Part shown: positions 34,085 to 58,081 of the stretch, piece after piece
Numbering within the stretch: position 1 is the first letter of the stretch
How the letters are laid out: the number at the start of each line of letters is the position of its first letter
DNA from: a virus
Virus record (IMG/VR): IMGVR_UViG_3300025101_000019
Location: 96,001-160,000 of that record
Length of the DNA: 64,000 bases
Reading direction: 5' to 3' (one strand)
Program-made: the position numbers and the translations under genes
The notes under the pieces: generated by a model
What the model was told of the DNA's origin: nothing
Databases searched by the model: none
The model's input: the letters and a program-made list of their open reading frames with translations, nothing else

Positions 34085-35005
34085 TTATTTTCCTAATGTC
34101 ATTAAAATAGTTAATACCATAGCCATCACATTGATTTCTTTATCAACTACCATGGAGTCTTTGTACTGACCCTCGGCTATATTTAAAATAGTGTGTCCGA
34201 CTTTACCATTTGCATATGAATCTACTTCATCATAAAGTGCTCTATACAATGGTGTAAAGTCTTTCACTTTTGAATCTGCAATAATTTGTCTGATTGTGTT
34301 GAACTTTGTTTTCATTTCACCACTCTCTTGTAAAACTTTTATTACATCTTCAGTATAGTTCGCCTGAATTGTAGAGGTTGTATCTATTTGTAATTCACCT
34401 TTGACAACTTGTCTTTGTGCTGAATTTAGAACTCTACGAATGTCAGGATAACCACTATTGACCAAAATTGCCAAGTCTTCTTTTTCAAACTTAACTGATT
34501 CCTCGTTTAGTATATCAAACAATCTTTTTGCCACTTCTTTTTTAGAAGGTGGTGTTATTGCGAATGTTTGACAACGAGATTGAATCGGGTCAATAATTTT
34601 CTCTACATAGTTACAAGTTAAAATGAACCTTGTAGATTTACTAAAAGTTTCCATAAGATTACGAAGTGCTGCCTGTGCATTTGGTGTCAAATAATCAGCT
34701 TCGTCTAATATGATAACTTTCCACTTTCTGAAACCCATTGATGATGCGAATCCACGAATCTTGTCACGAACTGCGTCAACTGAGTTTTCATCAGAAGCGT
34801 TAATATACATCAAATCACAATCAATCTGATTTGTGATTATCTTTGCGAGGGTAGTCTTACCAGTTCCTGCAACTCCATAGAGTAACAAGTGAGGTACATC
34901 CTCATTTTCAATGTATATTTTTACTTTGTCTAATATATGTTGATTACCAACATATCCATCTAATGTATCGGGTCTGTATTTTTCAACCCATAGTGAATTG
35001 CTCAT
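34085..35005 (-). CDS. clamp loader large subunit (gp44/RFC-like)
   Basis: LWVEKYRP, GVAGTGKTT, LDEAD, IQSRC. Confidence 0.95.
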   Translation of the reverse strand: MSNSLWVEKYRPDTLDGYVGNQHILDKVKIYIENEDVPHLLLYGVAGTGKTTLAKIITNQIDCDLMYINASDENSVDAVRDKIRGFASSMGFRKWKVIILDEADYLTPNAQAALRNLMETFSKSTRFILTCNYVEKIIDPIQSRCQTFAITPPSKKEVAKRLFDILNEESVKFEKEDLAILVNSGYPDIRRVLNSAQRQVVKGELQIDTTSTIQANYTEDVIKVLQESGEMKTKFNTIRQIIADSKVKDFTPLYRALYDEVDSYANGKVGHTILNIAEGQYKDSMVVDKEINVMAMVLTILMTLGK

Positions 35006-36192
35006 CTACCTACTTCTTTTAAATATGTTTCTTTTGCGTTTTCCCAAGTCATTCCAATAATATCCATGTAATACAATGTATCTGGTTTCAACCTATTCTC
35101 ATCATGTAACTTAGTGTATCTTCTAATAGCTTTCTTCTTCCACCATCTGATTGTGTAATCATCACCTTCTTCGAACTTCTTTTTCATCTTCAACTGACTT
35201 TCATCAATCTCGTTTCTTAGAAACTCATTACCATTATCATACATCATTGCGAAGTATACACCTCGTTTAAATCCATGTTGATATTGTGTACTTTTGATTC
35301 CCAACTCTTTGAAAATCATAGACAATATTCTTTGTTTGATACCAGATACAGGTCCTTGGATACCTTCCTTTTGGGTTGTAACTCTTTTGTATTCATCAGC
35401 ATTATGTTCTTTCATCCATTGATGCCAGATATCGTAAAATTGATTATCAGGTTTAGTAGAAACTTTACCTGTCGATTCACCTAATGTTTTGAAATGTGGT
35501 ATTCCATTATATTGTGAATGGATTCCATAAAGAGAAGTTGTACCAACTGCGATTAGAGTTTGTCCATACTTTTCTTTCCACAAATCTCTGAATGTAGGTG
35601 AAGTGGTCAATGCCGAAACAAGTTTACCACCTAAGAAGTTATATCCCAAAGGTTGTGTTGCGATGATAGATGTACCAATTGTAGTATGATTCAACTTACC
35701 ATCTTTAAACTTGTTTTCTTTATCCCACCCAATGTATTTATCACGAACACCTAAAGATGTTACATCAGAACCAAGTGATATTACACCAAGTACTTTACCA
35801 CTTTTTCGGTCTTTAGCAAATGCTTTTATATTACGACCTGGATTAGCAGTAAACTCCATTGATGAAATACACTTTCGGATGTCAGTCCACTTTGCAGTCC
35901 CTGCAGAATCTACGATTAAGTCTACATAAGGTTCTAACTCTTCAATTTCTTTAATAGTCTGTTCCTTGTTGTAGATGTCAGTTGGAGTCCAAATCATATC
36001 ATAAGACTTTGCAAGACTTGGTTTTCTTGCCATAGACTTAGGTAGGTCTGAGTTCCACTCCTGCCACTTTTTATAAAGAGTTTGTTCCTCAACTGGCATA
36101 CTTGATAGGTATTCCATATTGTCGATGAATCGTTTTCTCTCTACATCATAGTCAAAGACTGGTGCCGCTGGTTCTGTGTCCCAAAATTGCAT
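35002..36192 (-). CDS. DUF4338 (DruA-like domain) protein
   Basis: RDKYIGW, QPLGYNFLGGKL, TTSLYG..SQYN, LGESTG. Confidence 0.7.
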   Translation of the reverse strand: MQFWDTEPAAPVFDYDVERKRFIDNMEYLSSMPVEEQTLYKKWQEWNSDLPKSMARKPSLAKSYDMIWTPTDIYNKEQTIKEIEELEPYVDLIVDSAGTAKWTDIRKCISSMEFTANPGRNIKAFAKDRKSGKVLGVISLGSDVTSLGVRDKYIGWDKENKFKDGKLNHTTIGTSIIATQPLGYNFLGGKLVSALTTSPTFRDLWKEKYGQTLIAVGTTSLYGIHSQYNGIPHFKTLGESTGKVSTKPDNQFYDIWHQWMKEHNADEYKRVTTQKEGIQGPVSGIKQRILSMIFKELGIKSTQYQHGFKRGVYFAMMYDNGNEFLRNEIDESQLKMKKKFEEGDDYTIRWWKKKAIRRYTKLHDENRLKPDTLYYMDIIGMTWENAKETYLKEVGR

Positions 36193-36887
36193 TACTTAAT
36201 CTCCACTAAATAATAGTTAGACTTAAATCCATCATTTTCAAATGAAACATGAGCTAATCCATTTGGTGAAATCTTCAATGAAGATGATTTTGCACCCTTG
36301 TTAGCATTAAGGATTTCCTTTAAGTACTTAGCTGAGAATGATATTGGTTCTACATCACCATCACACTCACATTCTACATTGATTGAGATTCTGTTAGAGT
36401 TAATCTTTGAATAACCTAAGATTACTTCACCTTTGTTACTTTTACAACTAAATGTAAATGTATCTGAATCAGATAATGCACCTTTAGACTTTACGAATTT
36501 GTTTACGAAGTCATTGTCCATTTTGATAGTAGATGTAAAATCAGGTAATTGTTTCAAATCTGGAACAACAGGTATTACAGAAAGGTCAGCCAACATATAG
36601 TTTACTGAAGTACCTTTATCTGAGAACACAAGTGCTGCGTCACCTTCTTTTACACTAATATCTGAATCTAATACAGATAATAGTCCTTTTAATTGAGATG
36701 TAGTGTAAACACCATACTCTCCATTTGGAAAGTCTTTGTTATCACTACTTACATTTCCTAATAGGGTCTTATCATCAGAAATGAATTTTACTGACAACCC
36801 TGCATCTGTTGAATCAATCTTTACTGATTCTACCTCACCACCCAAATTATATCGAGTAATGAACCCTTCAAACGAGCTTTTTTTCAT
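36192..36887 (-). CDS. DNA sliding clamp (gp45/PCNA-like)
   Basis: About 230 aa, FSAKYLKEIL, YYLV end; lies between loader and polymerase. Confidence 0.75.
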   Translation of the reverse strand: MKKSSFEGFITRYNLGGEVESVKIDSTDAGLSVKFISDDKTLLGNVSSDNKDFPNGEYGVYTTSQLKGLLSVLDSDISVKEGDAALVFSDKGTSVNYMLADLSVIPVVPDLKQLPDFTSTIKMDNDFVNKFVKSKGALSDSDTFTFSCKSNKGEVILGYSKINSNRISINVECECDGDVEPISFSAKYLKEILNANKGAKSSSLKISPNGLAHVSFENDGFKSNYYLVEIK

Positions 36888-36919: not shown

Positions 36920-36951
36920 CTAATATACGAAATTTATTTTTAAAATCCAAA
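36920..36951 (-). promoter_or_regulatory. Bacteroidota-type promoter for the clamp/loader genes
   Basis: TTTGG-N19-TATATTAG. Confidence 0.7.
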
Positions 36952-37554
36952 CCATTTTAACATTTTTAATCGTCTTTTTTTGAAATGGTATATATAAATG
37001 TTTTTTGGTTTGGTCTTTTCATACTTTGCTTTACCATTTTCAAGTGCTTTTCTAATCTCTAACGCAAATGGTTTAAACTTACCATTATGTTTAGTTCTAA
37101 TCGTTTTATCGTGATATCTAAATCCATTATACATAATAACACGACCTGGTTGAGTTTCACCTTTAAATTCAAAGTTTGTAGCTTTGTAAACCACACCCTC
37201 GTGTCCAAATGATTTATCTGCATATGATATAATCATATCTAAATCGGTGTTTCTCTGTAACCATCTAAGAGTCGAACCTATAAAGTAAGACTCTGTATTT
37301 TTAGGTGTATCATCTACACAAACTAATCTTTTTAATTCTAATATTTTATCAGGATTATTTGTATACTTTTGTTCTACTCCACCCATTCCAATCTTACCAT
37401 ATACAATTGCCCCAATCATATTGTTACCATCCATTAACTTAAAACAATATGAAGTTTTTAATCCATTCATATTTTTAGAGTAATGGTATTTTTCAATAAA
37501 ATCAACTACTTGACTTCTTGGACACTTTTCAACTATGTAATTTGTTACACTCAT
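36940..37554 (-). CDS. Mom-like GNAT DNA-modification protein (paralogue 1)
   Basis: YHYS, GAIVYG, LELKRL, TESYFIG, ISYAD..GHEGVVYKATNF. Confidence 0.8.
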   Translation of the reverse strand: MSVTNYIVEKCPRSQVVDFIEKYHYSKNMNGLKTSYCFKLMDGNNMIGAIVYGKIGMGGVEQKYTNNPDKILELKRLVCVDDTPKNTESYFIGSTLRWLQRNTDLDMIISYADKSFGHEGVVYKATNFEFKGETQPGRVIMYNGFRYHDKTIRTKHNGKFKPFALEIRKALENGKAKYEKTKPKNIYIYHFKKRRLKMLKWFGF

Positions 37555-40070
37555 TAAAATCCAAAAAATTCTGAAGCTTTATTTAGATTTGGATTTGGTT
37601 TCTCCCAATCCATAGCTTTATAGAAGTCATCAAGTTTATTTTCTAACTCCTTTTCCCAAATTTTATCGTAGTCAATATATTGTTCTACAAGATTTAAAAT
37701 CTGAGGTGGGTCATTGTGACCTTTTAGTCCTGTCGTATCTAATCCGAGAGGATTCTTTTTCAAATATACCCACTTAATCTTATCACCATCTTTCATTGGT
37801 TCGTACTTGTATGGTACTTTATAGAAAGCAAGTAATTGATTATATGTTATTGCTGCCTTAACATGCGCAGGTGACCCCTTTTGGAATTCACCTAATACTT
37901 GTGTCTTTGTTGTATACTTACTCATACCTTTGACCGCTGAGTTCTTTGCGATATCAATGAATGGTCGGTCTTCCATACCTTTTTTGTAATCAAGAATCTT
38001 AGTATCAATCTCCTTTTTATCAACCGACCTTAGAATATCTAACAAAACAGTCTTCATAACTTCCTTAAAATATGTTGGGAATGAACTTCTTTTTACATCC
38101 AATCCTTTCACATCTAACTTATCACAATCAACTTCATTATCATTGATAATCCATTGTGCGTATCTTTTCTTTGATACCCAAAACCCACCCTTTGCAATCG
38201 TTTCTTGTTTAATATCAAATTTATGTGTATCGATGTTAAATAACTTTTTTGCCATCGTATCATAAACTTTGTTGATATGACCTTCGACTTCTTTTGCTGC
38301 GGATATAATCGCAGGAATCATTTCTTCATCCGACTCTTCATTAAGTTGTGGATTCCTAGCTTTTACTAACGGCGCTGCTTGATAAAAAACAGAATCAGTA
38401 TCGGTATAAACATTGTAGTCATCTTCTTTTCCTATTACTTTTGAATAATATTGATTTGCAATCAACTCAGTTGTTTTAATTACAGTTTGACCTGTAATTG
38501 TAGTTGCTTCTGCGTTATCCACATCGTAGAATCTGAATGATGGTAATCCCAACACCCCATACAATGAGTTTAACATAATCTTTTGTACTAATTGTCGTTT
38601 ACCATAAAACTTGTATTGTTCGTCATTACCTTCTTTACCATACTTTTTCATCAAGTCTTTGTATTCAACTCGTTTGTCAAACCAAACACTTAGTATTTCA
38701 GGTATAACTCCAACTTTATCTGTTCTATATAAAACACCATTTGCAGCAACAGAGTATCTATTCTTTTCAATAAACTTTAGAAATTTATCTTTAGGTAGTG
38801 GTGGAAACTCATTACCCTCATCATCCAAAATAGAGTAAGTATCAATCTTACCTCTCATATGGTCTTCTGCTACATAATTCTTAAGTTTACCAATCTTAGT
38901 TTCAGGTGAGATATTGATACTCATAATGATTGATGGATATAGTGATGTTAAATCCAAATCATAAACCCATTTGTAAAGACCAGGTTTTGGTTCTTTTACA
39001 TATGCGCCTGTAAACTTCCCTTCACCATCAGACCCATCTGCGTTTCGTTTCTTTCTCCATGGTTTATTGGGTGCTACCCTACCACTCCTTCTAAGGAATG
39101 TAAGAATAGCTCCCTCTAACCATTTAGATGAAAACAGAAAGTCTTCGTAGAACACATGACCTGTATGACATATTGCCCTTGCTAAGTCAATGAATTGTAA
39201 TTTCTTATCCAAGTCAACTACCAACTCAACATCAACTAAGTTATACTCAATAAACTTTTCAATATCATCTCTGAATAGTTGGTCTAAGTTTCCTTCATAC
39301 TCAATCTTACCTCGACCTAACTCAATTGTTGCAACAGTATCTAATCGATAGTTGGGTAGTTCTGTAAAGTTATAACACTTATATAAAGCGAGATAATCTA
39401 ATGCAGATACTCCTGCAATAATATATCTGTTTCTGTACTTGTTGTATGATACTTTACCAATTGGTGATAATTGATTTGCATATTGTTGACCGAATAGTAG
39501 TTTATATCTATTGTAAAGATATGTAACATCAAAGAAATCAATATTCCACCCCGTTACAATAGTTGGATTTATCTCTCTCCACTTGGACATAAACGCTGAT
39601 AATAATCCCTCTTCAGTATCAAATGATTCTACCTTTGCACCTTTGATTGTTTTATCAATCTTTTCACCTTTGTTAACTACATAGACAAAATAGTCATTTG
39701 TAATTGAGTCATGTGCTGCGATTGAAGTAATTGCGTTACTTGCAGTTTCAATATCAGGCAACCCACTATTCATTTCAACCTCAATATCAAATGTTAGAAT
39801 TGTATGTCCTGTTGATAGTTCGTCTGAATCACCATACTCATCAATTAGAAACCTCGTCATTTCATTAACATCAGACTCATATAATTTTAAGTCATCATCT
39901 TGTTTCCAATAATTTAATTTCTTAAGTCGTTCACCATGAATGGATTGATGTGCTCCATTACCATCTCTTACATAGGCGTACCTACGATACTTAGATGTAA
40001 AGTAACCTTTTTCATCATCCCAACAATGGATGATAGACTTTTCTTTTTCGAAGAATACATTTTGATACAT
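37554..40070 (-). CDS. DNA polymerase family B (gp43-like)
   Basis: FDIE, GWNIDFFD, YNLVD exonuclease motifs; DLTSLYPS, KIMLNSLYG, YTDTDS. Confidence 0.97.
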   Translation of the reverse strand: MYQNVFFEKEKSIIHCWDDEKGYFTSKYRRYAYVRDGNGAHQSIHGERLKKLNYWKQDDDLKLYESDVNEMTRFLIDEYGDSDELSTGHTILTFDIEVEMNSGLPDIETASNAITSIAAHDSITNDYFVYVVNKGEKIDKTIKGAKVESFDTEEGLLSAFMSKWREINPTIVTGWNIDFFDVTYLYNRYKLLFGQQYANQLSPIGKVSYNKYRNRYIIAGVSALDYLALYKCYNFTELPNYRLDTVATIELGRGKIEYEGNLDQLFRDDIEKFIEYNLVDVELVVDLDKKLQFIDLARAICHTGHVFYEDFLFSSKWLEGAILTFLRRSGRVAPNKPWRKKRNADGSDGEGKFTGAYVKEPKPGLYKWVYDLDLTSLYPSIIMSINISPETKIGKLKNYVAEDHMRGKIDTYSILDDEGNEFPPLPKDKFLKFIEKNRYSVAANGVLYRTDKVGVIPEILSVWFDKRVEYKDLMKKYGKEGNDEQYKFYGKRQLVQKIMLNSLYGVLGLPSFRFYDVDNAEATTITGQTVIKTTELIANQYYSKVIGKEDDYNVYTDTDSVFYQAAPLVKARNPQLNEESDEEMIPAIISAAKEVEGHINKVYDTMAKKLFNIDTHKFDIKQETIAKGGFWVSKKRYAQWIINDNEVDCDKLDVKGLDVKRSSFPTYFKEVMKTVLLDILRSVDKKEIDTKILDYKKGMEDRPFIDIAKNSAVKGMSKYTTKTQVLGEFQKGSPAHVKAAITYNQLLAFYKVPYKYEPMKDGDKIKWVYLKKNPLGLDTTGLKGHNDPPQILNLVEQYIDYDKIWEKELENKLDDFYKAMDWEKPNPNLNKASEFFGF

Positions 40071-40074
40071 ATGT

Positions 40075-40106
40075 TAAATATACGAAATTATTTTGACTTT
40101 ACCAAA
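40075..40106 (-). promoter_or_regulatory. Bacteroidota-type promoter abutting the polB start
   Basis: TTTGG-N19-TATATTTA, 4 nt before ATG. Confidence 0.7.
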
Positions 40107-40887
40107 AGTTAACTGCGTTTTCTGGCGTATAAGTTTCATGTTTTTCAATAGGTGGTAAAAACTCCTCAGGGTCTTTTGGATACGGACTTGTTTTATGTTT
40201 TAACATCTTACTAAGTTTTCGTTTCTCAGATTTGTTTTGACCTAAGATTTGAATGTACCTATGTTTAGGTGCTTCTTTCTTTCGCCAAAAACATGATTTG
40301 TTTTGTTTACCTATTTCTGTTTTTAAGTGTTCTACATTATGTGAACCCCATTTTGAGAATACAGTTCTCGAATGAATCCAATTGTAAGGATTTTCAGTTA
40401 GTGATACTGAATAGTTTGGCATTAGTTGTATATCACGACAATCTTGATATAACCAATTAGTTGCTTGGTAAATGCCACCGAGGTGTAATTGTTCAGGGTC
40501 TGCGTAACTCAATAACATCTTAATATTTGGTGCATTTTCTCTCATCCATTTAAAAGACTGACCCATTGAGTATGATTCTACATTTGAACCATATCCATCG
40601 TGTATAAACAATCTTGTCAATTCTAAACACTCATCTTTTTCTAAACCATCAATTACAGACTTAATCGCTGAACGACCTACGGGATATCCATATACCAAAC
40701 AACCAATTAGTTTTTCACTACCAAAAAACTCACCATCACCTTTGTAATACACACCAAGTGCGTATCTACACATTGTCCATGCGTGAGAGTAGTGATACTT
40801 CACTATCATATGTTTTGCAACACTTTTATTGATTTCTCTGATTGAAACCTTTGAGGCGTCTACATAATGTTTATTAGGTTCTTTCAA
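40099..40887 (-). CDS. Mom-like GNAT DNA-modification protein (paralogue 2)
   Basis: YHYS, LELTRL, VESYSMG, LSYADP..HLGGIYQATNW. Confidence 0.8.
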   Translation of the reverse strand: MKEPNKHYVDASKVSIREINKSVAKHMIVKYHYSHAWTMCRYALGVYYKGDGEFFGSEKLIGCLVYGYPVGRSAIKSVIDGLEKDECLELTRLFIHDGYGSNVESYSMGQSFKWMRENAPNIKMLLSYADPEQLHLGGIYQATNWLYQDCRDIQLMPNYSVSLTENPYNWIHSRTVFSKWGSHNVEHLKTEIGKQNKSCFWRKKEAPKHRYIQILGQNKSEKRKLSKMLKHKTSPYPKDPEEFLPPIEKHETYTPENAVNFW

Positions 40888-41626
40888 TTGGTTCTAATTT
40901 TTTTATTTCTTCTTCAAATAACTCACCCTGTTTAGGATATGGTAGTGAAGGATATTTTAAACTCTTTAATATACGACTTTTTTTTGACTTATCCAAAATA
41001 TAAATGTATCGATGCTTTCTTGGTTCTTTTTTAATCCAAAAAGTTTTACCAATTACCTTTTGTATTTTGGTGGGGTTATTAGTTCCATAATATGGAAATA
41101 TTGTTCTACCATGTTGCCACTCCCCATTTTCTTCAAACTTAAATAACCAACTATCATTTGGTCTTATTCTATTTCCTTGGTATACCCAATTAGTTGACTG
41201 ATATACAGTTCCTAAATGACCTGCTTTGGGGTCTGAGTATGAAATTAATCCTTTGATGTGTTTTGCGTAGGTTCTTAACCACTTAAATGTTTGACCTACA
41301 AACCAACTTTCAATGTTACATCCGTATCCATCAAATACAAATAATCTTGTAAGTTCTAATACTTCTTTTCTATCCAATAACTCTGATATTGATTGCCCAG
41401 AGTGTCTTCCGATTGGGTCACCATATGTTGCAACACCGATTAACTTATCTGTCGATGAAAAGAAAGAGTGTGAGTTATCCTCAATATACAATCCCAAACA
41501 ATAACTAACCTTTGTCCATATACCACTATAATGGTTTTTTATGATAATGTCCTTTGCTACTGATTTTGAGATAGGTCTTACGGATAACTTTGAAATATCT
41601 GTATACTCTTTCCCTTTAATTTTCAT
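40874..41626 (-). CDS. Mom-like GNAT DNA-modification protein (paralogue 3)
   Basis: NHYS, LELTRL, IESWFVG, ISYSDP..GHLGTVYQSTNWVYQG. Confidence 0.8.
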   Translation of the reverse strand: MKIKGKEYTDISKLSVRPISKSVAKDIIIKNHYSGIWTKVSYCLGLYIEDNSHSFFSSTDKLIGVATYGDPIGRHSGQSISELLDRKEVLELTRLFVFDGYGCNIESWFVGQTFKWLRTYAKHIKGLISYSDPKAGHLGTVYQSTNWVYQGNRIRPNDSWLFKFEENGEWQHGRTIFPYYGTNNPTKIQKVIGKTFWIKKEPRKHRYIYILDKSKKSRILKSLKYPSLPYPKQGELFEEEIKKLEPIERT

Positions 41627-47746: not shown

Positions 47747-49105
47747 TTAAAAATCGATATCACCCGACATTTCTTTATATTTTTGCGCTAATTCCTTTCT
47801 TACTAAACTCTCCCCTTGTTTCATCTGGGTAGTAGTTTTTCTACCATCAATGGAATCATCGTTGTAAATATGAATTTGGCCTGTTGAGAAGTTTGCTTTA
47901 GATGGGAATGTCATTCCATCTGGCCCAAACCTATTTTTAATAACATGCCATCTACCCGTTCCTGCAAGTTTGTCTTCTATTTTACGAGATAATGATACTA
48001 CAAAGTCTGCGGTCATCATTTTAGAGAATGAACCTGCGATTTTTGTACCTGTAATAATATCATCTTCTGCACCACTACGATTAATTTGTGATGCCGTATA
48101 AACGGGAACTTCATATTCACCTGCCATACCACGAAGGTCTTCGATAATTTCTTCTAACTCTTCGTGTCTTTTTTCTTTCTGAGGACCTCTAAGTAAGTCT
48201 GCGTAATCAACAATAACTACATCAGGTTTCTTACCTTGTAAAATCATCTTGTCCATATGGGCTTTTAATGATGTTACACTTGCGGTTTTGGTTGGATAAT
48301 GTTTTACAACTAAGTCACCCTTTACATTTTGGACTGCCTTCTCGACATCTTCCATATTAAATTTCAAGTTTCCTACTGCTACTCCACTTAGTACGGCATC
48401 ATATCTCTGACCAACATAACCTTCATTTAATTCAAGAGTATAGTGTGCTACTATCTTCCCTTGTTTCATTGCGTTAACCCCAATGTTTACTAACGACCAA
48501 GACTTACCAATACCAGGAGGTGCTGCGAATAAAACTAACTCACCCTTACCAAAACCACCTTGTGTAATTTCATCAATAACTTGCCAACCTGTTGAGACTA
48601 CATTCCTAACTGTATCTTCATATCTTTCGGTAATCATAGATTTGTACTCATGACCAATATCAGAATCTTGACCTGCTTTCATAGCAGTATCAATGTTTTT
48701 CTTTATCATATCGTATTTCCCACTTTCTAATAATGGTACTGAATCTAAGATTGCGTTTTTGATAGATTGATTTTTACAGAAGTCAAGAACTTGCTCTTTT
48801 ACAAATTCTAAATCATCACTTTCTAAATGATTCCATGCAAATTTTAATGTATCAACTACCGAAGTTTTTAATACATCTCTTTCTATGGTGTTTATTTTGA
48901 CTTTGAGAACATCTAAGGTTGGCATCTTCTCAAATTCATGCATATACTTTAGGATATTTTTTACTAACCACTCTGCTGATTCAGCATCAAAGTACTCTGG
49001 CTTAATAATATCATATATCTGTCGTGTAAACGACCTATCTGATAATATAGAAGATATAACTTTATTCTGAAATGAGGTACTGAACTTACTTCCTAATTTT
49101 TCCAT
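47747..49105 (-). CDS. replicative DnaB-like helicase (gp41-like)
   Basis: APPGIGKS, YTLEL, VDYAD, TASQINR, KNRFG. Confidence 0.93.
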   Translation of the reverse strand: MEKLGSKFSTSFQNKVISSILSDRSFTRQIYDIIKPEYFDAESAEWLVKNILKYMHEFEKMPTLDVLKVKINTIERDVLKTSVVDTLKFAWNHLESDDLEFVKEQVLDFCKNQSIKNAILDSVPLLESGKYDMIKKNIDTAMKAGQDSDIGHEYKSMITERYEDTVRNVVSTGWQVIDEITQGGFGKGELVLFAAPPGIGKSWSLVNIGVNAMKQGKIVAHYTLELNEGYVGQRYDAVLSGVAVGNLKFNMEDVEKAVQNVKGDLVVKHYPTKTASVTSLKAHMDKMILQGKKPDVVIVDYADLLRGPQKEKRHEELEEIIEDLRGMAGEYEVPVYTASQINRSGAEDDIITGTKIAGSFSKMMTADFVVSLSRKIEDKLAGTGRWHVIKNRFGPDGMTFPSKANFSTGQIHIYNDDSIDGRKTTTQMKQGESLVRKELAQKYKEMSGDIDF

Positions 49106-49110
49106 AGACT

Positions 49111-49142
49111 ACAATATACGAAATTATTTTTTAATATCAAAG
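49111..49142 (-). promoter_or_regulatory. Bacteroidota-type promoter abutting the helicase start
   Basis: TTTG..TATATTGT, 5 nt before ATG. Confidence 0.6.
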
Positions 49143-50179
49143 TGATTCTTAAGATAATTGTCTAATGATGTAAATGAATTTCTTAACCACGAATCTACAT
49201 TTGCAAATGCGGTGTATAATTTGTCATACATAAACATCTTTTTGAACTCTACTATGTTTAGTTGAGGTTGGTGTACATCCATCATTTCTCTAACATTAGA
49301 TGTAATTGATGAAGATATCTCAGGGTCAGATAATTGCATTAACCCATAATTCATATTTATTGTATCTAAATTGTCCATAAGTTTTTTTGACAACTTCTCA
49401 TCACACTCTTTAGAACATTTCTCTATGAATGTATCTAAAGAAAGGTGATTTTCCGTTAAAAACTTCATTTTAGATTCAATTGTCTTAATACCAACACCAT
49501 TTACACCTTTTATGTTATCTGATTTGTCACCCATTAAAACTCTGTAAAATATAAGATTTTGTGCACTTACTCCGAAGTCTTCTTTAACTTCTGTTTCAGT
49601 ATACATTTTCTTTTTAGTGGGTGTATACACTTGGATTCGGTGATTTACTAATTGTAAAAAGTCCTTATCAGATGAAAGAATAGTTACCTGCTTTTCAAAG
49701 TAATGATTTGCAAGATATGCTATAATATCATCTGCTTCTACATAATCTATATAAGTCATTGTTATCGGTAATATCTGTAAGTACTCAATTAGTCTCTTAA
49801 ATTGATTCCTCATAGATACTCGTTGGTCTTCTAAGTCCTCATATCCTGCAAGTCTATTTAACTTAGTTAACCCCGTTCTACCTTCCTTATATCCCTTATA
49901 TACGGACTTTCTTCTGTTTGAACCACCTTTTCCATCAAAGACTATAATAACACGAGTTGGTTTTAATCTTCTAATCGTTGCAGCGGTGGACAAGAGAAAC
50001 CCTGTCACACCACCACAATGTTCACCATCATCATTTAAAGCAGGTACTGCTCCAAATACTCTAATGAATTGATTAAGACCATCAATGATAAGAACTCTAT
50101 CATTGAGTGATTCATTTTTAGTTGTATTATATTCTTTGTTTACTTCCTTAAGAAGTTCTGCGTATTTACTATTCATCAA
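49124..50179 (-). CDS. 5'-3' exonuclease / flap endonuclease (T4 RNase H-like)
   Basis: IIDGLN, VFDG, YKEGR, EADDII, SSDKDFLQL, GDKSDNIKGV.GVG. Confidence 0.93.
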   Translation of the reverse strand: MMNSKYAELLKEVNKEYNTTKNESLNDRVLIIDGLNQFIRVFGAVPALNDDGEHCGGVTGFLLSTAATIRRLKPTRVIIVFDGKGGSNRRKSVYKGYKEGRTGLTKLNRLAGYEDLEDQRVSMRNQFKRLIEYLQILPITMTYIDYVEADDIIAYLANHYFEKQVTILSSDKDFLQLVNHRIQVYTPTKKKMYTETEVKEDFGVSAQNLIFYRVLMGDKSDNIKGVNGVGIKTIESKMKFLTENHLSLDTFIEKCSKECDEKLSKKLMDNLDTINMNYGLMQLSDPEISSSITSNVREMMDVHQPQLNIVEFKKMFMYDKLYTAFANVDSWLRNSFTSLDNYLKNHFDIKK

Positions 50180-51302
50180 AATCTGTTACTTCAACATTAT
50201 CAATATTTGCCTCTTCACTTGATTTCTTGTATGCCATAATATATGAATTACAGATTTCTTCGTAAAGAGATTCTTTTAGCTCAGGTCTTTCTTCGAGAAT
50301 GTCTTCAAAATTCTTTGCTTGGAATTTTAGTTCCTCACCTGTCGATTTGTCAACATAAGTGTACCATGCACCACTTTGAGTTACCAACTTATATGTTTTC
50401 ATCATTTGTAACCATGAACCATAATTGTCGATACCACTATCAAAGTAGATATCATAGTCAACTGAACGAAGAGGTGGTCCCATTCTATTCTTGATAACTT
50501 GAGCACGAGTTTTGATACCAACTACTTGGTCAACCCCACCTATTTTAGATTTAAGTTGTCCCATAGATTTTAGTCTTAGTCTACAAGATGAGTGGAATGC
50601 TATTGCTTTACCACCACTTGTAGTCCAAGGGTCACCAAATGAAACACCTAATCTTGTTCTTAACTGATTTGTGAATATTAATGAGATTCGTTCTCTACCA
50701 ATAAGATTAGTAACTTTTCTCATAGCTTTAGAGATAATAATAGCTTTCTGAGTTGCATAACCTGCTTGGTCATAATCTGCTGATAACTCAACCTTAGTTG
50801 ATGCACCAGCAACAGAGTCTACTACTATTGTTACTAACTTCTTCTTATCAGAACCTCTTACGGATTCTATGATAGAGTCGATTGCTTCAAATATATCTTC
50901 TACGGATTCAAGAGGAACATATAACATCTTTTCGATATCAATTCCAATAGCCGCCAAAAACTCAGTATTACAAGCATTCTCAGTATCTATGTAAACACCA
51001 AGACCACCCTTCTTTTGAGTGTCTGCTATTGCGTGTGCAGCTAGTAATGATTTTCCACTTCCTTCTAAGCCAGTAATCTCAGTTATACGACCTACTGGTA
51101 GTCCACCATTTGGTCTGTTTGAGATTGCCAAATCTAACATTGGAGAACCTGTCGAAACCCACCCATCAAGGTCAGTTGGAGTTTGTTCCCCACCATCCAA
51201 GAAGTAAGCCACCTTGTGGGTGGTCTTAAACTTCTTGTTTAGATTGGTAGCTAAGATGGAAGATAGTTCATCACGAACTGATTCTTTCTTCTTCTTTGCC
51301 AT
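50169..51302 (-). CDS. recA: RecA/UvsX recombinase
   Basis: GGLPVGRITEITGLEGSGKS, IDTE, VDSVA, FTNQLR, TTSGGKA. Confidence 0.95.
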   Translation of the reverse strand: MAKKKKESVRDELSSILATNLNKKFKTTHKVAYFLDGGEQTPTDLDGWVSTGSPMLDLAISNRPNGGLPVGRITEITGLEGSGKSLLAAHAIADTQKKGGLGVYIDTENACNTEFLAAIGIDIEKMLYVPLESVEDIFEAIDSIIESVRGSDKKKLVTIVVDSVAGASTKVELSADYDQAGYATQKAIIISKAMRKVTNLIGRERISLIFTNQLRTRLGVSFGDPWTTSGGKAIAFHSSCRLRLKSMGQLKSKIGGVDQVVGIKTRAQVIKNRMGPPLRSVDYDIYFDSGIDNYGSWLQMMKTYKLVTQSGAWYTYVDKSTGEELKFQAKNFEDILEERPELKESLYEEICNSYIMAYKKSSEEANIDNVEVTDFDE

Positions 51303-51305
51303 AAA

Positions 51306-52067
51306 TTATTCGTTAAATAAGTCGTCAAACGCCTCTTTTACATTACTTGCTGGAGAGGTTGCAGTTGTAGTTTCTTTAACTTCAACTTTAGGTTCTTCTT
51401 TTTTATCAGAAACTTCACCTGTATCTAACCATTCTTTCAACATTCCTTCCATTTCCTCATAAGAAACTTTTTTGAACATATCACCAAGAACGATTTGGTC
51501 TTTAGAGGTTTCTAAAATGTTCTTATCCTCTGAGATAGGTGTTGTATTAGGTTTTACTCTGATGTATGTCTCAGGGTAAGTTTTACCTAATTCTGCAGCA
51601 GTTTTAAATTCTACTGTTACATCTCTACCATTCACAGGGTCAGTTAAATCACCATAGTCAGGGTCAGCGAAGAATCCAAGAAGTTCTTGGTATACATTCT
51701 TACCGAATCCCCAAAACTTAACACCTTCAGACTCTTCACCTCTAACGATGATAGGAACATAAGTTCTCATCTTTGGAGTTAATTTTCTTGAAAGTTGGTA
51801 ATCGTTTCTGTCACCTGTTGCTTTCAACTTTTCTGCAAACTCTAAAATAGGGTCTGCTTCACCAAAAGAACTTGGGCTGATAATGTTTTTACCACCAAAT
51901 CCAAAATGGAAATAAAGTTCGATGAACGGGTTAGAAGGATTGTGAACATAAGGAAGAATCCTTACTTGTTGTTTGCCGGGTTGTGGTTTCCACAAGTTGT
52001 CGGTCTTTGTTACTTTGGTCTGAAGAGAATTCAGACGATTGCGGATTGCGTTTAAATCAATTGCCAT
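51306..52067 (-). CDS. single-stranded DNA-binding protein (gp32-like)
   Basis: VRILP, GVKFWGFG, DPVNGRD, acidic tail FDDLFNE. Confidence 0.85.
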   Translation of the reverse strand: MAIDLNAIRNRLNSLQTKVTKTDNLWKPQPGKQQVRILPYVHNPSNPFIELYFHFGFGGKNIISPSSFGEADPILEFAEKLKATGDRNDYQLSRKLTPKMRTYVPIIVRGEESEGVKFWGFGKNVYQELLGFFADPDYGDLTDPVNGRDVTVEFKTAAELGKTYPETYIRVKPNTTPISEDKNILETSKDQIVLGDMFKKVSYEEMEGMLKEWLDTGEVSDKKEEPKVEVKETTTATSPASNVKEAFDDLFNE

Positions 52068-53105: not shown

Positions 53106-53495
53106 TTAGTTTACATTGACTATTCTAAATAAACTTGTATTTAATATTTTGTATCCATCACCATCTGTTAGAATCATAGAGTTTCTATAACTATCCCAAT
53201 CAATTTTATATGTTTTATCCTCAACACCACCATTTAAGTCTACAATCAATCTATTCAATGCGTTGATTGTGTAAATAGTGTTTGACTCTTTCTTACGATG
53301 TGCTAATATAGTACTTCCTAAGAATTTTCTTTCATTGTTTGGTATGATGTTATAACTAATCACTAATTCTTGTGATGGTTTTAATTTTAAAATAAATATC
53401 TTTCTACTATAAAGGATGAATGAGTCTTGAATAGTTTCTAAAACCGATTCAAATTCAGCTTCATTAGTAAATGTACATAATAATTGCGTTCTCAC
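53106..53495 (-). CDS. hypothetical phage protein
   Basis: MRTQLLCTF...HRKKESNTIYTINALN. Confidence 0.7.
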   Translation of the reverse strand: MRTQLLCTFTNEAEFESVLETIQDSFILYSRKIFILKLKPSQELVISYNIIPNNERKFLGSTILAHRKKESNTIYTINALNRLIVDLNGGVEDKTYKIDWDSYRNSMILTDGDGYKILNTSLFRIVNVN

Positions 53496-53504
53496 CCATA
53501 TCCC

Positions 53505-55598
53505 TTATTTTATCTTTAAAGCTGATTTAACTTTTCCTAATGGAAGTTCTTGTGTACCTTCAAAGTTGTAACTATATCTACCAGATGAATTAGTTCCCAT
53601 TCTAAATTGGGAATATTTCATATCACCTGTTGTTTCATTTATACCTGTTAATCCATATCCCGTCATTGTGAAATACTTACCATCTTTTGCGTTTGTTCTT
53701 AAAAAGAATACCGTTGTATCTGATAAGTCTTTTGACAACTTGTCTTGTACAAATTTTTCAGAACCAGGAAATTGTTTATATGTAGTTCCTTTTCCATCTT
53801 TATCTACACCAAAGACTTTATATAAAGGTAATGTTGTTTTACCATATATCATTTCTTTCTCTATCTCTATTAGTTGTGAGTATAACTTTTTTGCATCGCC
53901 AGATAAATCACCCAATATACTTTTAAGTACGATTGCTGATTGAAAGTTTGTCAATAACTTAGCAACAGTATCTTTTGATACAGGTGCAGTTAAAGAGAGT
54001 TTTTCATATCCGTTATAGTAAAATGCTGGATTTGATATAGCTGAACTATACAATGCTTTTAGTTTAGTATCCACATTAGTTACTAATTTATCTAATACTT
54101 TTTGATTTGTTGCAATTTGTTCAAAAGAATCATATATAGATGGTTTCTTAGCTTCATTTAGAATACCTTCATGTAACCCTGCTCTTAGTAATTCTTTTTC
54201 TAATTTTTTAACTTCAGATTTTGGAGATTTTTTTAATCCCTTGAATATCTTTTTTGAGAATCCAAATAAGAATTTCCCTAATTGAGAAATTTTCTGTAAT
54301 AAGTTAGAACCAATACCTTTTATAAAAGCAACACCCTTATTTAAAAAGTCTCTTAATCCCTCATTCAATTGAACTGACTCTAATGCCAAATTCTTAACAT
54401 CCTCAGTACCCAATAACCCATACTTGTCTTTTAAGAATCCATATATTTTACCTAATTGAGCTCCACCTTCTGCTTTTTTGAGTGATACTTGTATAAACTT
54501 AATACTTGTACCAGTTATTGTACAAACACCCTTTTTATCATATTCAACAGGTAACCCTTCACCTAACTTAGATATAAGTTCAGACGATGGGACATTGGAT
54601 ATAACACAATCAGCAGTATTATCTTTTACACCATCTACTAATTCAGAACGCTCAGTAGCTTGATAATATCCTTTTATATTTTTATGAGTTATAAATGCAC
54701 CTTTAAATTTCATATCATCTGTAAACTTGGTCATACCTGCCATTAATTGTGCTATCAAGAAATAATCACCGAGTGGCATCGTATCTAATTTAGATAAAAT
54801 CTCATTAGGTTTTGCGTATTCTCCACTACTCCCCAATGCTTTTACAAATTTCTGTTTTACATCGTTAGTAACTTTTGGTAAAGTTTCTTCGGTAGCTGCA
54901 TTTAATTGTTTAAGTATACTGAAACCATTTACATATGTTCCCATACATTGTGCAGTTTCCATCGTTTCTGTATCAAAGTTTACATCAGTTGGTTTAGAAC
55001 CTTTTCTCATTTTACCAAATAAAGACTGAATGTTTCCATTACTTGCGGTAATTATATAATTTTTACCAGTATCTTCAGCGGATACATATACAGTTTGACC
55101 ATTATTTATTTTTACTTGAACACCATCTTCAGTAGGTGCTATTTTAGTAAAAGGTCCTTTAGGTACTTTTTCACCTTTTGGTAATCCCATTTGTAATAAA
55201 TCTGCCGTATTTTTAAGTGGTATGAATTTATCACCTATTGCATATTTGTTGTCATATATGGAAGCTTCACTAAGGAGTTGTCCTAATTGAATTAGTATAT
55301 TTTCTTTTACTTTTTCTTTATCCTTTAACTTGTCTTTTTCAATCTGAGTCAACATTCCAAATTTGTCAATGTCTTTTTCTTCACCAGAGTCAGGTCTTTC
55401 TTCTTCTGGCTCTTCTTCATTACCTTTATCAAACTCTTGAATTAGAATATCAGCGTTTGCTTCACCAACCTCATCTATAAGATGATAATAAAAAGATTTT
55501 AAGAATTCTTCAGTATAAATACCTTCAGTAAGTTTAGTGTCTATATCAGACCAAACCTTCCGTAATATTCTATCTACTATGTTTTGGGATTTCTTCAT
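53505..55598 (-). CDS. large hypothetical protein with possible PD-(D/E)XK-like core
   Basis: ETAQC...NTADCV...QVSLKK. Confidence 0.6.
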   Translation of the reverse strand: MKKSQNIVDRILRKVWSDIDTKLTEGIYTEEFLKSFYYHLIDEVGEANADILIQEFDKGNEEEPEEERPDSGEEKDIDKFGMLTQIEKDKLKDKEKVKENILIQLGQLLSEASIYDNKYAIGDKFIPLKNTADLLQMGLPKGEKVPKGPFTKIAPTEDGVQVKINNGQTVYVSAEDTGKNYIITASNGNIQSLFGKMRKGSKPTDVNFDTETMETAQCMGTYVNGFSILKQLNAATEETLPKVTNDVKQKFVKALGSSGEYAKPNEILSKLDTMPLGDYFLIAQLMAGMTKFTDDMKFKGAFITHKNIKGYYQATERSELVDGVKDNTADCVISNVPSSELISKLGEGLPVEYDKKGVCTITGTSIKFIQVSLKKAEGGAQLGKIYGFLKDKYGLLGTEDVKNLALESVQLNEGLRDFLNKGVAFIKGIGSNLLQKISQLGKFLFGFSKKIFKGLKKSPKSEVKKLEKELLRAGLHEGILNEAKKPSIYDSFEQIATNQKVLDKLVTNVDTKLKALYSSAISNPAFYYNGYEKLSLTAPVSKDTVAKLLTNFQSAIVLKSILGDLSGDAKKLYSQLIEIEKEMIYGKTTLPLYKVFGVDKDGKGTTYKQFPGSEKFVQDKLSKDLSDTTVFFLRTNAKDGKYFTMTGYGLTGINETTGDMKYSQFRMGTNSSGRYSYNFEGTQELPLGKVKSALKIK

Positions 55599-55610: not shown

Positions 55611-56837
55611 CTAAATATCGGTCTTAACCATATTATCATAATTGTTTCCAATTTCTATCTCGACAGGGAATCCATCTTTTTCCATTATTGATTTAACTTC
55701 CCTAATGTAATTCTCTTCGTTTGCGTCAACATCGAACAGAATCGAGTCGTATGTATATAATATAGGTACTGACTTTTGATTCAAATTGATTTTTGACAAT
55801 TTATCTAATATAAATATGTTTCTTTCTGTTTCAAGCGCTTGTAAAACATAATTAAATAATTTATTTTTATTTAGATTCTCATCAAATTTAATTTTTCTTT
55901 GTAAAATAGGTGTAACCACTTCACGATTTCGTAAGAAATCTAACCATAGTGAGTTTATGTAATCTGATGTTTTTTTGAAAAATGGTATGTGATAGTATTC
56001 ATCTTCCACCCCACCATATAGTTGTCTAAATGTGATTGCCTTTGCTTGACTAATATCTTTTCCATATTGATTTGCCAACCACCCATGTGCTTTCTTATCT
56101 AACGGAATATCTATGCCAATTAGTTTTGATATAAGTCGAATATGATATCCATCGAAATCTAATTGGCACAATTTACCATTTTCGAATCGTGAAATAAATC
56201 TACTACGAGTACCATCATTTTTCTTAAGTGCTGCGTAATTTACTCCACCAAATGTATTGGATGGTCGTGATGTTGTAGTAAGTGTATTATATTGAGTATG
56301 TTCAAGTGTATCTAAATCCGTATAAAGTCCATTCTTCTCAACCCATTGTAATGCTTTCGCATATAGTTGTGAGAATTTAGAAATTTTTGAGTCGACAAAA
56401 AGTTTCTTCCAATCTTCGAATTGTTCGTAGTGTTTCCATATAGGAATAAGGTCATTTGCTTTAGGTGCCTGTCGTCTTCTGAATATAGTGTAGATGGGTT
56501 TCTCTTGTACATCGAATGGTTTAGCTTGCCAAAAGAGTGACATTTCTAAATCATACATATTGGGTAAGAAATCATAGTGATATAGAAAATCTTTCATTCC
56601 TACTATGTAAACTTCTTTAAAGTTGTGAAACTCTACCTTTTCGTCTATTTTACTTGCGTCTATGTTGTTGTAATTAACAAATAGGTCTAATGTACCATCT
56701 GATATGATTAGTGCGGATACTCGTGTCTTTATAGGGTGTTTATCTAAACTCGTAAGTATAGGGTACACCAATATCCTTTCCCGATAGAGTTGGGATATAT
56801 GTTTCTTAAGTTGTTTGTTGCTATCTACAATTTTCAT
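55611..56837 (-). CDS. compact family-A DNA polymerase-like protein
   Basis: TTTSRPS, motif A LDFDGYHIRL, motif B AKAITFRQLYGG, NYVLQA, motif C YTYDSILFD. Confidence 0.85.
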   Translation of the reverse strand: MKIVDSNKQLKKHISQLYRERILVYPILTSLDKHPIKTRVSALIISDGTLDLFVNYNNIDASKIDEKVEFHNFKEVYIVGMKDFLYHYDFLPNMYDLEMSLFWQAKPFDVQEKPIYTIFRRRQAPKANDLIPIWKHYEQFEDWKKLFVDSKISKFSQLYAKALQWVEKNGLYTDLDTLEHTQYNTLTTTSRPSNTFGGVNYAALKKNDGTRSRFISRFENGKLCQLDFDGYHIRLISKLIGIDIPLDKKAHGWLANQYGKDISQAKAITFRQLYGGVEDEYYHIPFFKKTSDYINSLWLDFLRNREVVTPILQRKIKFDENLNKNKLFNYVLQALETERNIFILDKLSKINLNQKSVPILYTYDSILFDVDANEENYIREVKSIMEKDGFPVEIEIGNNYDNMVKTDI

Positions 56838-57433: not shown

Positions 57434-57511
57434 CTCTTAATCTTACACTACTAATATAGTGATAATATTTGAGACTACCAAACTTTTAATGTTAAATAAT
57501 TGTTAAATTTT
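57434..57511 (-). promoter_or_regulatory. Bacteroidota-type promoter with TTAACA repeat and shared leader
   Basis: TGTTAA at 57490 and 57501; CTCTTAATCTTACACTACTAATATA shared with the 3102 copy. Confidence 0.75.
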
Positions 57512-58081
57512 TGCACCTTGTTGTAAGTTGGTAAGATATCGTTCAAGGCCTAAAAATACATTCTGATACAACATAATTGTTCTTTTATTGGTATCAATAA
57601 TACCTTTTTCTTCTGGTGTATCATTTAAAGGTCCAGCAATTTTCCATTTTAATTCGAGTTTCTGATAGTATACACTCTCTAACTCACCAAACCCATCTTC
57701 ACTTACTTCATTAATAATGGTACTTCCCTTTCTTTTGTAAAAATACCTTGTTGCAAAAGAATTGTCATAATCTTCTTGAGTTGGTTGAAACAAATGAGGG
57801 TCAGGTACTACAAGATTTTGTTCATAATCTTCAACTAACTCTTTTAATACATTATATTGAAAAGTATTTTTCGCAAGTTGTTCGTTCAATCTATAAAGTG
57901 GTACTAATTTTACAGATACATCTTTTACATATACTGGCTGAGTATATATTTCTCCTGTGTTGGTATATTTGTGATATTGCCCAACCCATTCGTCACCATC
58001 ATCAGTCATCCATTCACCACCCTCGGTGTATAGACCCTTTTGGATACTTCCTTCTGGATAATATATTCTTCGTCTTCCCAT
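57503..58081 (-). CDS. tail/baseplate-region hypothetical protein
   Basis: LYTEGGEW..YHKY; last gene of the tail cluster. Confidence 0.6.
   Translation of the reverse strand: MGRRRIYYPEGSIQKGLYTEGGEWMTDDGDEWVGQYHKYTNTGEIYTQPVYVKDVSVKLVPLYRLNEQLAKNTFQYNVLKELVEDYEQNLVVPDPHLFQPTQEDYDNSFATRYFYKRKGSTIINEVSEDGFGELESVYYQKLELKWKIAGPLNDTPEEKGIIDTNKRTIMLYQNVFLGLERYLTNLQQGAKI

Follow-up and report, generated by a model that had tools for sequence, protein, structure and literature searches.

Why should a phage that already encodes a complete replisome also encode a second, compact polymerase of family A in which the glutamate of the steric gate is replaced by histidine, and what might that enzyme do? 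The window analysed here is a stretch of 64,000 nucleotides (positions 96,001 to 160,000) of the IMG/VR virus record IMGVR_UViG_3300025101_000019, which represents an uncultured marine phage of 173,350 bp with nearly all of its genes on one strand. The replisome of this phage is complete and of the T4 type (Table 1), and a ribonucleotide reductase (RNR) is also encoded. A sequence-only reading of the window had described a 408-aa PolA-like protein beside a complete family-B replisome, and the family-B polymerase (PolB), sliding clamp, clamp loader, DnaB-type helicase, gp32-type protein and 5'-3' exonuclease (FEN) were all found. It had also suspected that a primase lay elsewhere in the genome, and a search of the whole genome located one of the DnaG/Toprim type.

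Table 1. Replication genes, neighbouring genes and polymerase motifs of the phage. Positions are those of the window, except for the primase, which lies outside it.
Feature	Position	Strand	Evidence or remarks
Clamp loader	34085..35005	-	phrog_168, 6.5e-83
Sliding clamp (processivity factor)	36192..36887	-	phrog_223, 3.1e-8
Full-size family-B DNA polymerase, 838 aa, the 'regular' polymerase of the phage	37554..40070	-	phrog_262, 4.6e-189; PF00136, 7.9e-42
DnaB/gp41-type replicative helicase	47747..49105	-	phrog_19, 1e-84
Pol I-type 5'-3' exonuclease / flap endonuclease (FEN)	49124..50179	-	PF02739, 3.5e-32; PF01367, 1.6e-11
UvsX/RecA-type recombinase	50169..51302	-	phrog_97, 5e-73
gp32-type ssDNA-binding protein	51306..52067	-	PF08804, 6.5e-13
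p129, conserved 129-aa protein, basic motif HRKKESNTIYTINALN	53106..53495	-	downstream of divPolA1
697-aa protein in the slot between divPolA1 and p129	53505..55598	-	closer relatives only
divPolA1-type compact family-A polymerase, 408 aa	55611..56837	-	vestigial 3'-5' exonuclease domain, short-linker thumb, whole palm and fingers
Motif C, YDS: Y363 (=H881), catalytic D364 (=D882), S365 (=E883)	55743..55751	-	
Motif B (O-helix), KAITFRQLYG: K266, F270 and Y274 retained; R754 equivalent Ile262 four residues upstream	56013..56042	-	
Motif A, DFDGYHIR: D227 (=D705), H232 (=E710; codon 56142-56144)	56136..56159	-	translation and profile alignment
p192, conserved 192-aa protein, usually precedes divPolA1, after a baseplate-region gene	57503..58081	-	44/53 loci
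DnaG/Toprim-type primase, 311 aa	G000:C1:44612-45547	-	phrog_47, 9.4e-33

Family-A identity and membership of divPolA1

The 408-aa protein does not reach the gathering score of Pfam PF00476, to which some of its relatives give weak or faint matches. A phmmer search of the PDB sequences with the single protein and a megablast search of the phage records with the polymerase locus both returned no match, and among the PHROG families it matched those annotated as 'DNA polymerase' (phrog_17). As the single-protein search of the PDB was empty, a profile was needed, and it was built from 123 diverse homologues, each representing a cluster at 50 % identity. The best match of this profile among PDB sequences was Klenow (1kln/1d8y, E 1e-11). 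Homologues are numerous in aquatic metagenomes, where clustering gives 2167 groups at 90 % identity; at 50 % there are 952 representatives, of which 427 score below 1e-30. Most are 400–460 aa long.

An AlphaFold2 model built with the alignment of the 123 representatives (pLDDT 96.5, pTM 0.93) has, by both VIA and Foldseek, a Klenow-type palm and fingers together with an N-terminal exonuclease-like domain, and no extra domains are present in the 408 aa. Foldseek matched the model to Klenow (1kfd, 1.4e-16), apicoplast polymerase, Pol theta and KlenTaq, while VIA-align gave Z 28.7 and rmsd 2.9 with 376 aa aligned to 6vdd (the POL domain of M. smegmatis Pol1) and Z about 28 to residues 301–876 of the Bst large fragment. 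The best 50 matches of each search were DNA polymerases. From the VIA matches to Pol I fragments, the protein is a shrunken 'large fragment' that consists of exonuclease-like and polymerase domains. It shares the overall fold of the Klenow, Bst and Taq large fragments (PF00476), including the vestigial exonuclease domain, with Z about 28, but is about 170 residues shorter, lacks the thumb helices and has a gene separate from that of the 5' nuclease. In both the profile alignment and the model, the thumb is reduced to 13 residues (G170–Y183), compared with about 105 in Klenow, and the gap lies between the 'IEkNG' helix (E167–G170) and the strand leading to the TGR motif (Y183).

A polymerase of this description has been published. 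Yutin et al. ('DNA polymerase swapping in Caudoviricetes bacteriophages', Virol J 2024, 21:200; PMC11348598) named divPolA1, with Flavobacterium phage immuto as the type, and reported it in 14 phages of 155–190 kb, namely immuto and its relatives, all of which have, in addition, a 'regular' polymerase that belongs to family A, B or C. In that account, palm residues are kept, the thumb is truncated, the exonuclease aspartates are replaced and conserved replication genes lie downstream. The protein studied here is homologous to immuto gene 1, the published divPolA1 (tblastn 4e-34, blastp 2.4e-40, 37 % identity), and has the same truncated thumb, intact palm catalytic residues and replaced exonuclease aspartates. 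It is likewise additional to a regular polymerase, here the 838-aa PolB of a 173,350-bp genome, and replication genes lie downstream of it. The 408-aa protein is thus a member of the already published divPolA1 family and not a new kind of polymerase. The published members are likewise 400–450 aa long; the family is, however, far larger than the 14 phages of the original report, with 952 clusters at 50 % identity in this analysis. It is not among the 19 clusters of the 2023 reclassification of PolA, across which the steric-gate position, A2, is highly conserved (PMC10201439). A literature search on Microcystis phage Mel-JY01, which also carries divPolA1, and on thumbless or minimal PolA found nothing.

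Longer, fused forms were also sought, and no fusion of divPolA1 to a FEN, helicase or primase was found, though this is weak evidence. The sole longer relative is P0392, a 935-aa protein from a Logan contig, in which the C-terminal 285 aa resemble divPolA1, down to the His gate and YDS, and the N-terminal 650 aa have no Pfam match.

Residues of the active site

The coordinates of the polymerase motifs were confirmed by translation. In the profile alignment to Klenow, motif A 'DydayHlrL' falls on 'DYSQIELRI' and motif B 'sKkitFkqLYG' on 'AKAINFGLIYG', while the other blocks 'TGRPS', 'NYllQ' and 'YtYDSfLfD' fall on 'TGRLS', 'NAPMQ' and 'QVHDELVFE', respectively. Hence, D227 corresponds to Klenow D705, H232 to E710, K266 to K758, F270 to F762, Y274 to Y766, R191 to R668, N329 to N845, Q333 to Q849, Y363 to H881, D364 to D882 and S365 to E883. 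The sequence-only reading had set DFDGYHIR against DYSQIELR, with His at E710, and had read motif C as YDS rather than HDE, with both catalytic Asp and the K/F/Y of motif B kept. All of this holds in the profile alignment (E 1e-11), and conservation was assessed across a set of 350 homologues made up of diverse representatives, close relatives and 80 IMG/VR loci.

Within this set, the core of a family-A polymerase is retained, with the Asp of motifs A and C, the Lys, Phe and Tyr of motif B and the Arg of the TGR motif all present. The motif A Asp (D227) was found in 350/350 homologues and the Asp at the D882 position in 349/349. D227, D364, K266, R191 and Y363 are invariant, and the equivalents of K758, F762, Y766, R668, N845 and Q849 are invariant or nearly so in 350 sequences that share only ~30–35 % identity. 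The Asp pair, the O-helix K/F/Y, the TGR Arg and the N/Q minor-groove sensors are therefore common to divPolA1 and the Klenow, Bst and Taq large fragments.

In contrast, E710 of those enzymes is replaced by His, E883 by Ser, H881 by Tyr and R754 by Ile. The His at the gate, which the earlier reading had seen in a single protein, is conserved in 122 of the 123 cluster representatives and in 348 of the 350 homologues, the exceptions being a Thr in a 169-aa fragment and one Phe. Glu, the family-A residue at this position (A2, Klenow E710), was found in none of the 350. The H881 position is Tyr in 349/349 homologues, and the E883 position, from which the motif C Glu of family A is absent, is Ser in 309, Ala in 39 and Gly in one. 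At the position of the O-helix Arg of family A (R754), the residue is non-basic family-wide (Tyr, Leu or Ile), with Arg in only 10/350. Taken together, the His gate, the Ser or Ala at E883, the Tyr at H881 and the non-basic residue at R754 show, at the level of the aligned sequences, a remodelled nucleotide pocket under strong selection. The His gate, taken with the Ser in place of E883 and the absence of R754, shows a pocket that was rebuilt once and has thereafter been frozen.

No clear exonuclease motifs had been seen in the sequence-only reading either, and the DEDD pattern of the large fragments is absent from the N-terminal domain (residues 1–165), where conservation within the family is limited to H34, H58, K82 and D96; position 58 is Asn in this phage. 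The near-invariant set of H34, H58 and D96, kept together with K82 in this dead exonuclease-like domain (window about 56550–56738), could be either a metal site or purely structural.

The text of Yutin et al. 2024 (PMC11348598) does not mention the steric gate, ribonucleotides or glutamate. We did not find the His gate, the Ser or Ala at E883, the Tyr at H881, the loss of R754 or the p129 neighbour dealt with below described for divPolA1.

Gene order and the p129 neighbour

Gene order was surveyed in 80 IMG/VR loci that include divPolA1, and was found to be near-fixed, on a single strand: a baseplate-region gene, p192, divPolA1, a variable slot, p129, gp32, UvsX, FEN, DnaB and RNR. The count for p192 in Table 1 refers to loci with at least 4 kb upstream, and this gene lies where the baseplate genes give way to the replication module. 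Among loci with at least 9 kb downstream, gp32 is present in 26/26 and UvsX, FEN and DnaB are each present in 25/26. The slot after divPolA1 is 0–4.8 kb long and its contents vary, with a Metallophos protein in one locus (L012) and a 537-aa protein in another (L011). In this phage it is occupied by the gene for the 697-aa protein, which starts 12 bp past the polymerase stop, has no family match in Pfam or PHROG and directly follows the polymerase in 7/80 loci.

The polymerase had been credited with its own promoter. Within the 38-bp spacer at the polymerase there is a sigma-70-like match (9/12, 56873-56846), but such matches are roughly as common in shuffled sequence (39 found versus 31 +/- 5). 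In the search for the T4 late-promoter motif, TATAAATA was not enriched and no signal above shuffles was obtained. As the promoter scans gave no such signal, this claim has been dropped.

The small protein p129, whose invariant basic motif is HRKK.sN..YTINA.N, follows divPolA1 in all 53 loci with at least 5 kb downstream. It is better conserved than the polymerase, sharing 48 % identity with its immuto homologue compared with 37 % for divPolA1. In a search of 50,697 phage records, p129 and divPolA1 were found in the same six (four of immuto, Mel-JY01 and LR756508), whereas T4-type PolB alone matched 2544. Hence, p129 is tied to divPolA1 and not to T4-like replication genes generally. Nothing in Pfam or the PHROGs matches p129. 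Its model (pLDDT 91.9) has only ferredoxin/ACT-like matches with Z about 6, over residues 1–65, in the Foldseek PDB and VIA searches, neither of which found an OB-fold match. Prediction of a complex of divPolA1 and p129 gave an ipSAE of 0.00, which is below the mark and is evidence neither for nor against an association. p129 may supply a grip on DNA in place of the missing thumb.

A full-size polymerase is present besides divPolA1 in all seven of the genomes or large contigs checked. This genome, Mel-JY01 and four IMG/VR contigs all have PolB. Flavobacterium phage immuto lacks PolB and has a full-length PolA of 777–778 aa (MW353176.1, 37854-40187) adjoining GroES/GroEL. A DnaG-type primase was found in 3/3 complete genomes that carry divPolA1. 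The pair formed by divPolA1 and p129 also reaches very large phage genomes, as it is present in the 484-kb uncultured phage LR756508; there, in LR756508.1 (240922-244170), divPolA1 has 28 % full-length identity and p129 lies ~1.5 kb downstream.

Genes for DNA modification were also noted. In this phage, three Mom-like DNA-modification paralogues (36940-37554, 40099-40887 and 40874-41626, all on the - strand) flank PolB, and several glycosyltransferases and a 2OG oxygenase lie near PolB and these paralogues. Besides divPolA1, immuto has a complete 7-deazaguanine (DpdA/QueCDEF) set.

The role of divPolA1

On the reading that we favour, divPolA1 is not the main replicase. In the genomes checked, it is always found beside a full-size polymerase, and in the complete ones beside a DnaG-type primase too. 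We consider that it is probably a DNA polymerase that fills gaps or extends D-loops, equivalent in function to the polymerase half of a split Pol I, and that p129 may assist it. It is a miniature version of the Pol I large fragment in which proofreading is dead and the thumb almost gone. It should still extend a primer on a template, as the two metal-binding Asp, the O-helix Lys, Phe and Tyr and the minor-groove sensors, equivalent to R668, N845 and Q849, are intact. Several observations together favour this reading. A catalytic core that is invariant at only about 30–35 % identity speaks for an active enzyme, and one that lacks both thumb and proofreading is likely to synthesise short stretches distributively. 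A replicase and a primase always accompany it, which favours an accessory role, and the fixed gene neighbourhood suggests lagging-strand and recombination work. In Klenow, DNA affinity, processivity and frameshift fidelity all fall when the tip of the thumb is removed (Minnick 1996, as cited in PMC10061031).

We infer, then, a distributive, short-patch DNA polymerase that serves the gp32-UvsX-FEN-DnaB module. Gaps left by primer removal by FEN would be filled by divPolA1, with Pol I divided into separate genes, and D-loops made by UvsX may also be extended by it. It is gene order that suggests this role, and two observations count against it: FEN is not adjacent to divPolA1, with gp32 and UvsX lying between them, and the search for longer forms found no fusion of the two. 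The sequence-only reading had offered three functions. A gap-filler partnering the 5'-3' exonuclease fits best, as the gene heads the near-universal gp32/UvsX/FEN/DnaB module, and the two others, a primase-like enzyme and a polymerase for modified templates, have been weakened for the reasons given below. That interpretation as a whole is therefore partly supported; the publication of divPolA1, the deleted thumb and p129 were missing from it.

As to the gate itself, aromatic residues gate the sugar in families B and Y and in reverse transcriptases. By analogy, our best guess is that the planar His would still block the 2'-OH and that the enzyme stays a DNA polymerase. The family-wide His may or may not alter sugar selectivity, and the sequences are compatible with either. 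As E710, E883 and R754, all of them important in Klenow, have changed, the reaction catalysed might not be the usual addition of dNTPs.

A relaxed or reversed sugar selectivity brought about by the His gate and the Ser at E883, which would permit use of rNTPs, synthesis of RNA or mixed primers or even the starting of chains, is unlikely, though the likeliest of the alternatives. The Klenow Glu that excludes rNTPs (Astatke 1998, as cited in PMC10201439) is missing in 350/350 homologues. Truncated PolAs with a small partner can prime, as does CCPol-MP, in which a truncated PolA from mobile elements, staphylococcal and of Bacillota, acts as a primase together with a small OB-fold protein (PMC7581432, PMC10061031); divPolA1 similarly has p129. 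Compared by description, these PolA-SSB primases and divPolA1 share a shortened thumb, an incomplete exonuclease domain, a small partner and a helicase nearby. However, the partner in CCPol-MP is an OB-fold ssDNA binder, while p129 has no OB-fold match, its best being ferredoxin/ACT-like with Z about 6, and the divPolA1 phages also carry a DnaG primase, in all three complete genomes, which weakens the primase-like reading. The T7-type RNA polymerases offer a second comparison, as they too have a family-A palm, a Ser after the motif C Asp and no gate Glu. Motif C of the single-subunit RNA polymerases, including that of T7, is HDS, which YDS resembles. T7 RNA polymerase, though, carries a Gly as its gate residue and has large modules for promoter binding and specificity, whereas divPolA1 keeps the Phe of DNA polymerases at 762. 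Retention of both F762 and Y766 as in DNA polymerases, best structural matches that are all DNA polymerases and a His that is bulky enough to act as a gate all speak against RNA synthesis. It is likewise doubtful, though conceivable, that divPolA1 is the first natural family-A lineage to have given up the Glu gate and that, with its obligate partner p129, it forms within a phage replication module a two-protein enzyme of altered sugar selectivity, for which the use of rNTPs, 2'-modified nucleotides or mixed primers would be possible.

A specialised polymerase that replaces a stalled main polymerase on hypermodified DNA or damaged templates would be in keeping with the three Mom-like genes and several glycosyltransferases around PolB and with the 7-deazaguanine (DpdA/Que) system of immuto, and the lack of proofreading and minimal thumb are typical of bypass enzymes. 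We nevertheless regard it as improbable, since phages whose modification systems differ, with Mom-like enzymes here but 7-deazaguanine/DpdA in immuto, have a near-identical active site. Moreover, modifications of the Mom and DpdA types arise after replication, and linkage of the gene is to gp32, UvsX, FEN and DnaB rather than to modification genes.

We hold it to be just as improbable that divPolA1 is the core polymerase of the module and that the swappable regular polymerase, of family A, B or C, is secondary or redundant. The context of divPolA1 is conserved and replicative, while the regular polymerases vary in family and lie in mixed or less obviously replicative contexts (PMC11348598), and for this reason a more central role is conceivable. 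Against it, a thumbless, non-proofreading enzyme is ill suited to replicating 160–190 kb, PolB here is accompanied by a clamp and clamp loader, and PolB is kept in every large contig checked.

Finally, a catalytically inert structural or regulatory remnant, as the changes at E883, R754 and E710, the dead exonuclease domain and the lost thumb might suggest, is very improbable in view of the metal-binding Asp and the equivalents of K758, F762, Y766, R668, N845 and Q849, which are invariant or nearly so in 350 sequences at ~30–35 % identity.

The steric-gate Glu is among the most constant residues of family A, and it is the residue that engineers mutate for acceptance of RNA or XNA. A large, abundant natural lineage with a fixed His and rebuilt E883, H881 and R754 positions is thus a ready-made experiment in sugar selection. 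If the His is simply another gate, the outcome is a modest refinement of the annotation of divPolA1. Two undescribed, testable features are thus added to what has been reported for divPolA1, namely the His that is conserved at the gate, along with the substitutions that accompany it, and the obligate p129 neighbour. A thumbless enzyme of ~400 aa accompanied by p129 may be of interest for minimal polymerases and for lagging-strand or recombination-dependent replication in phages.
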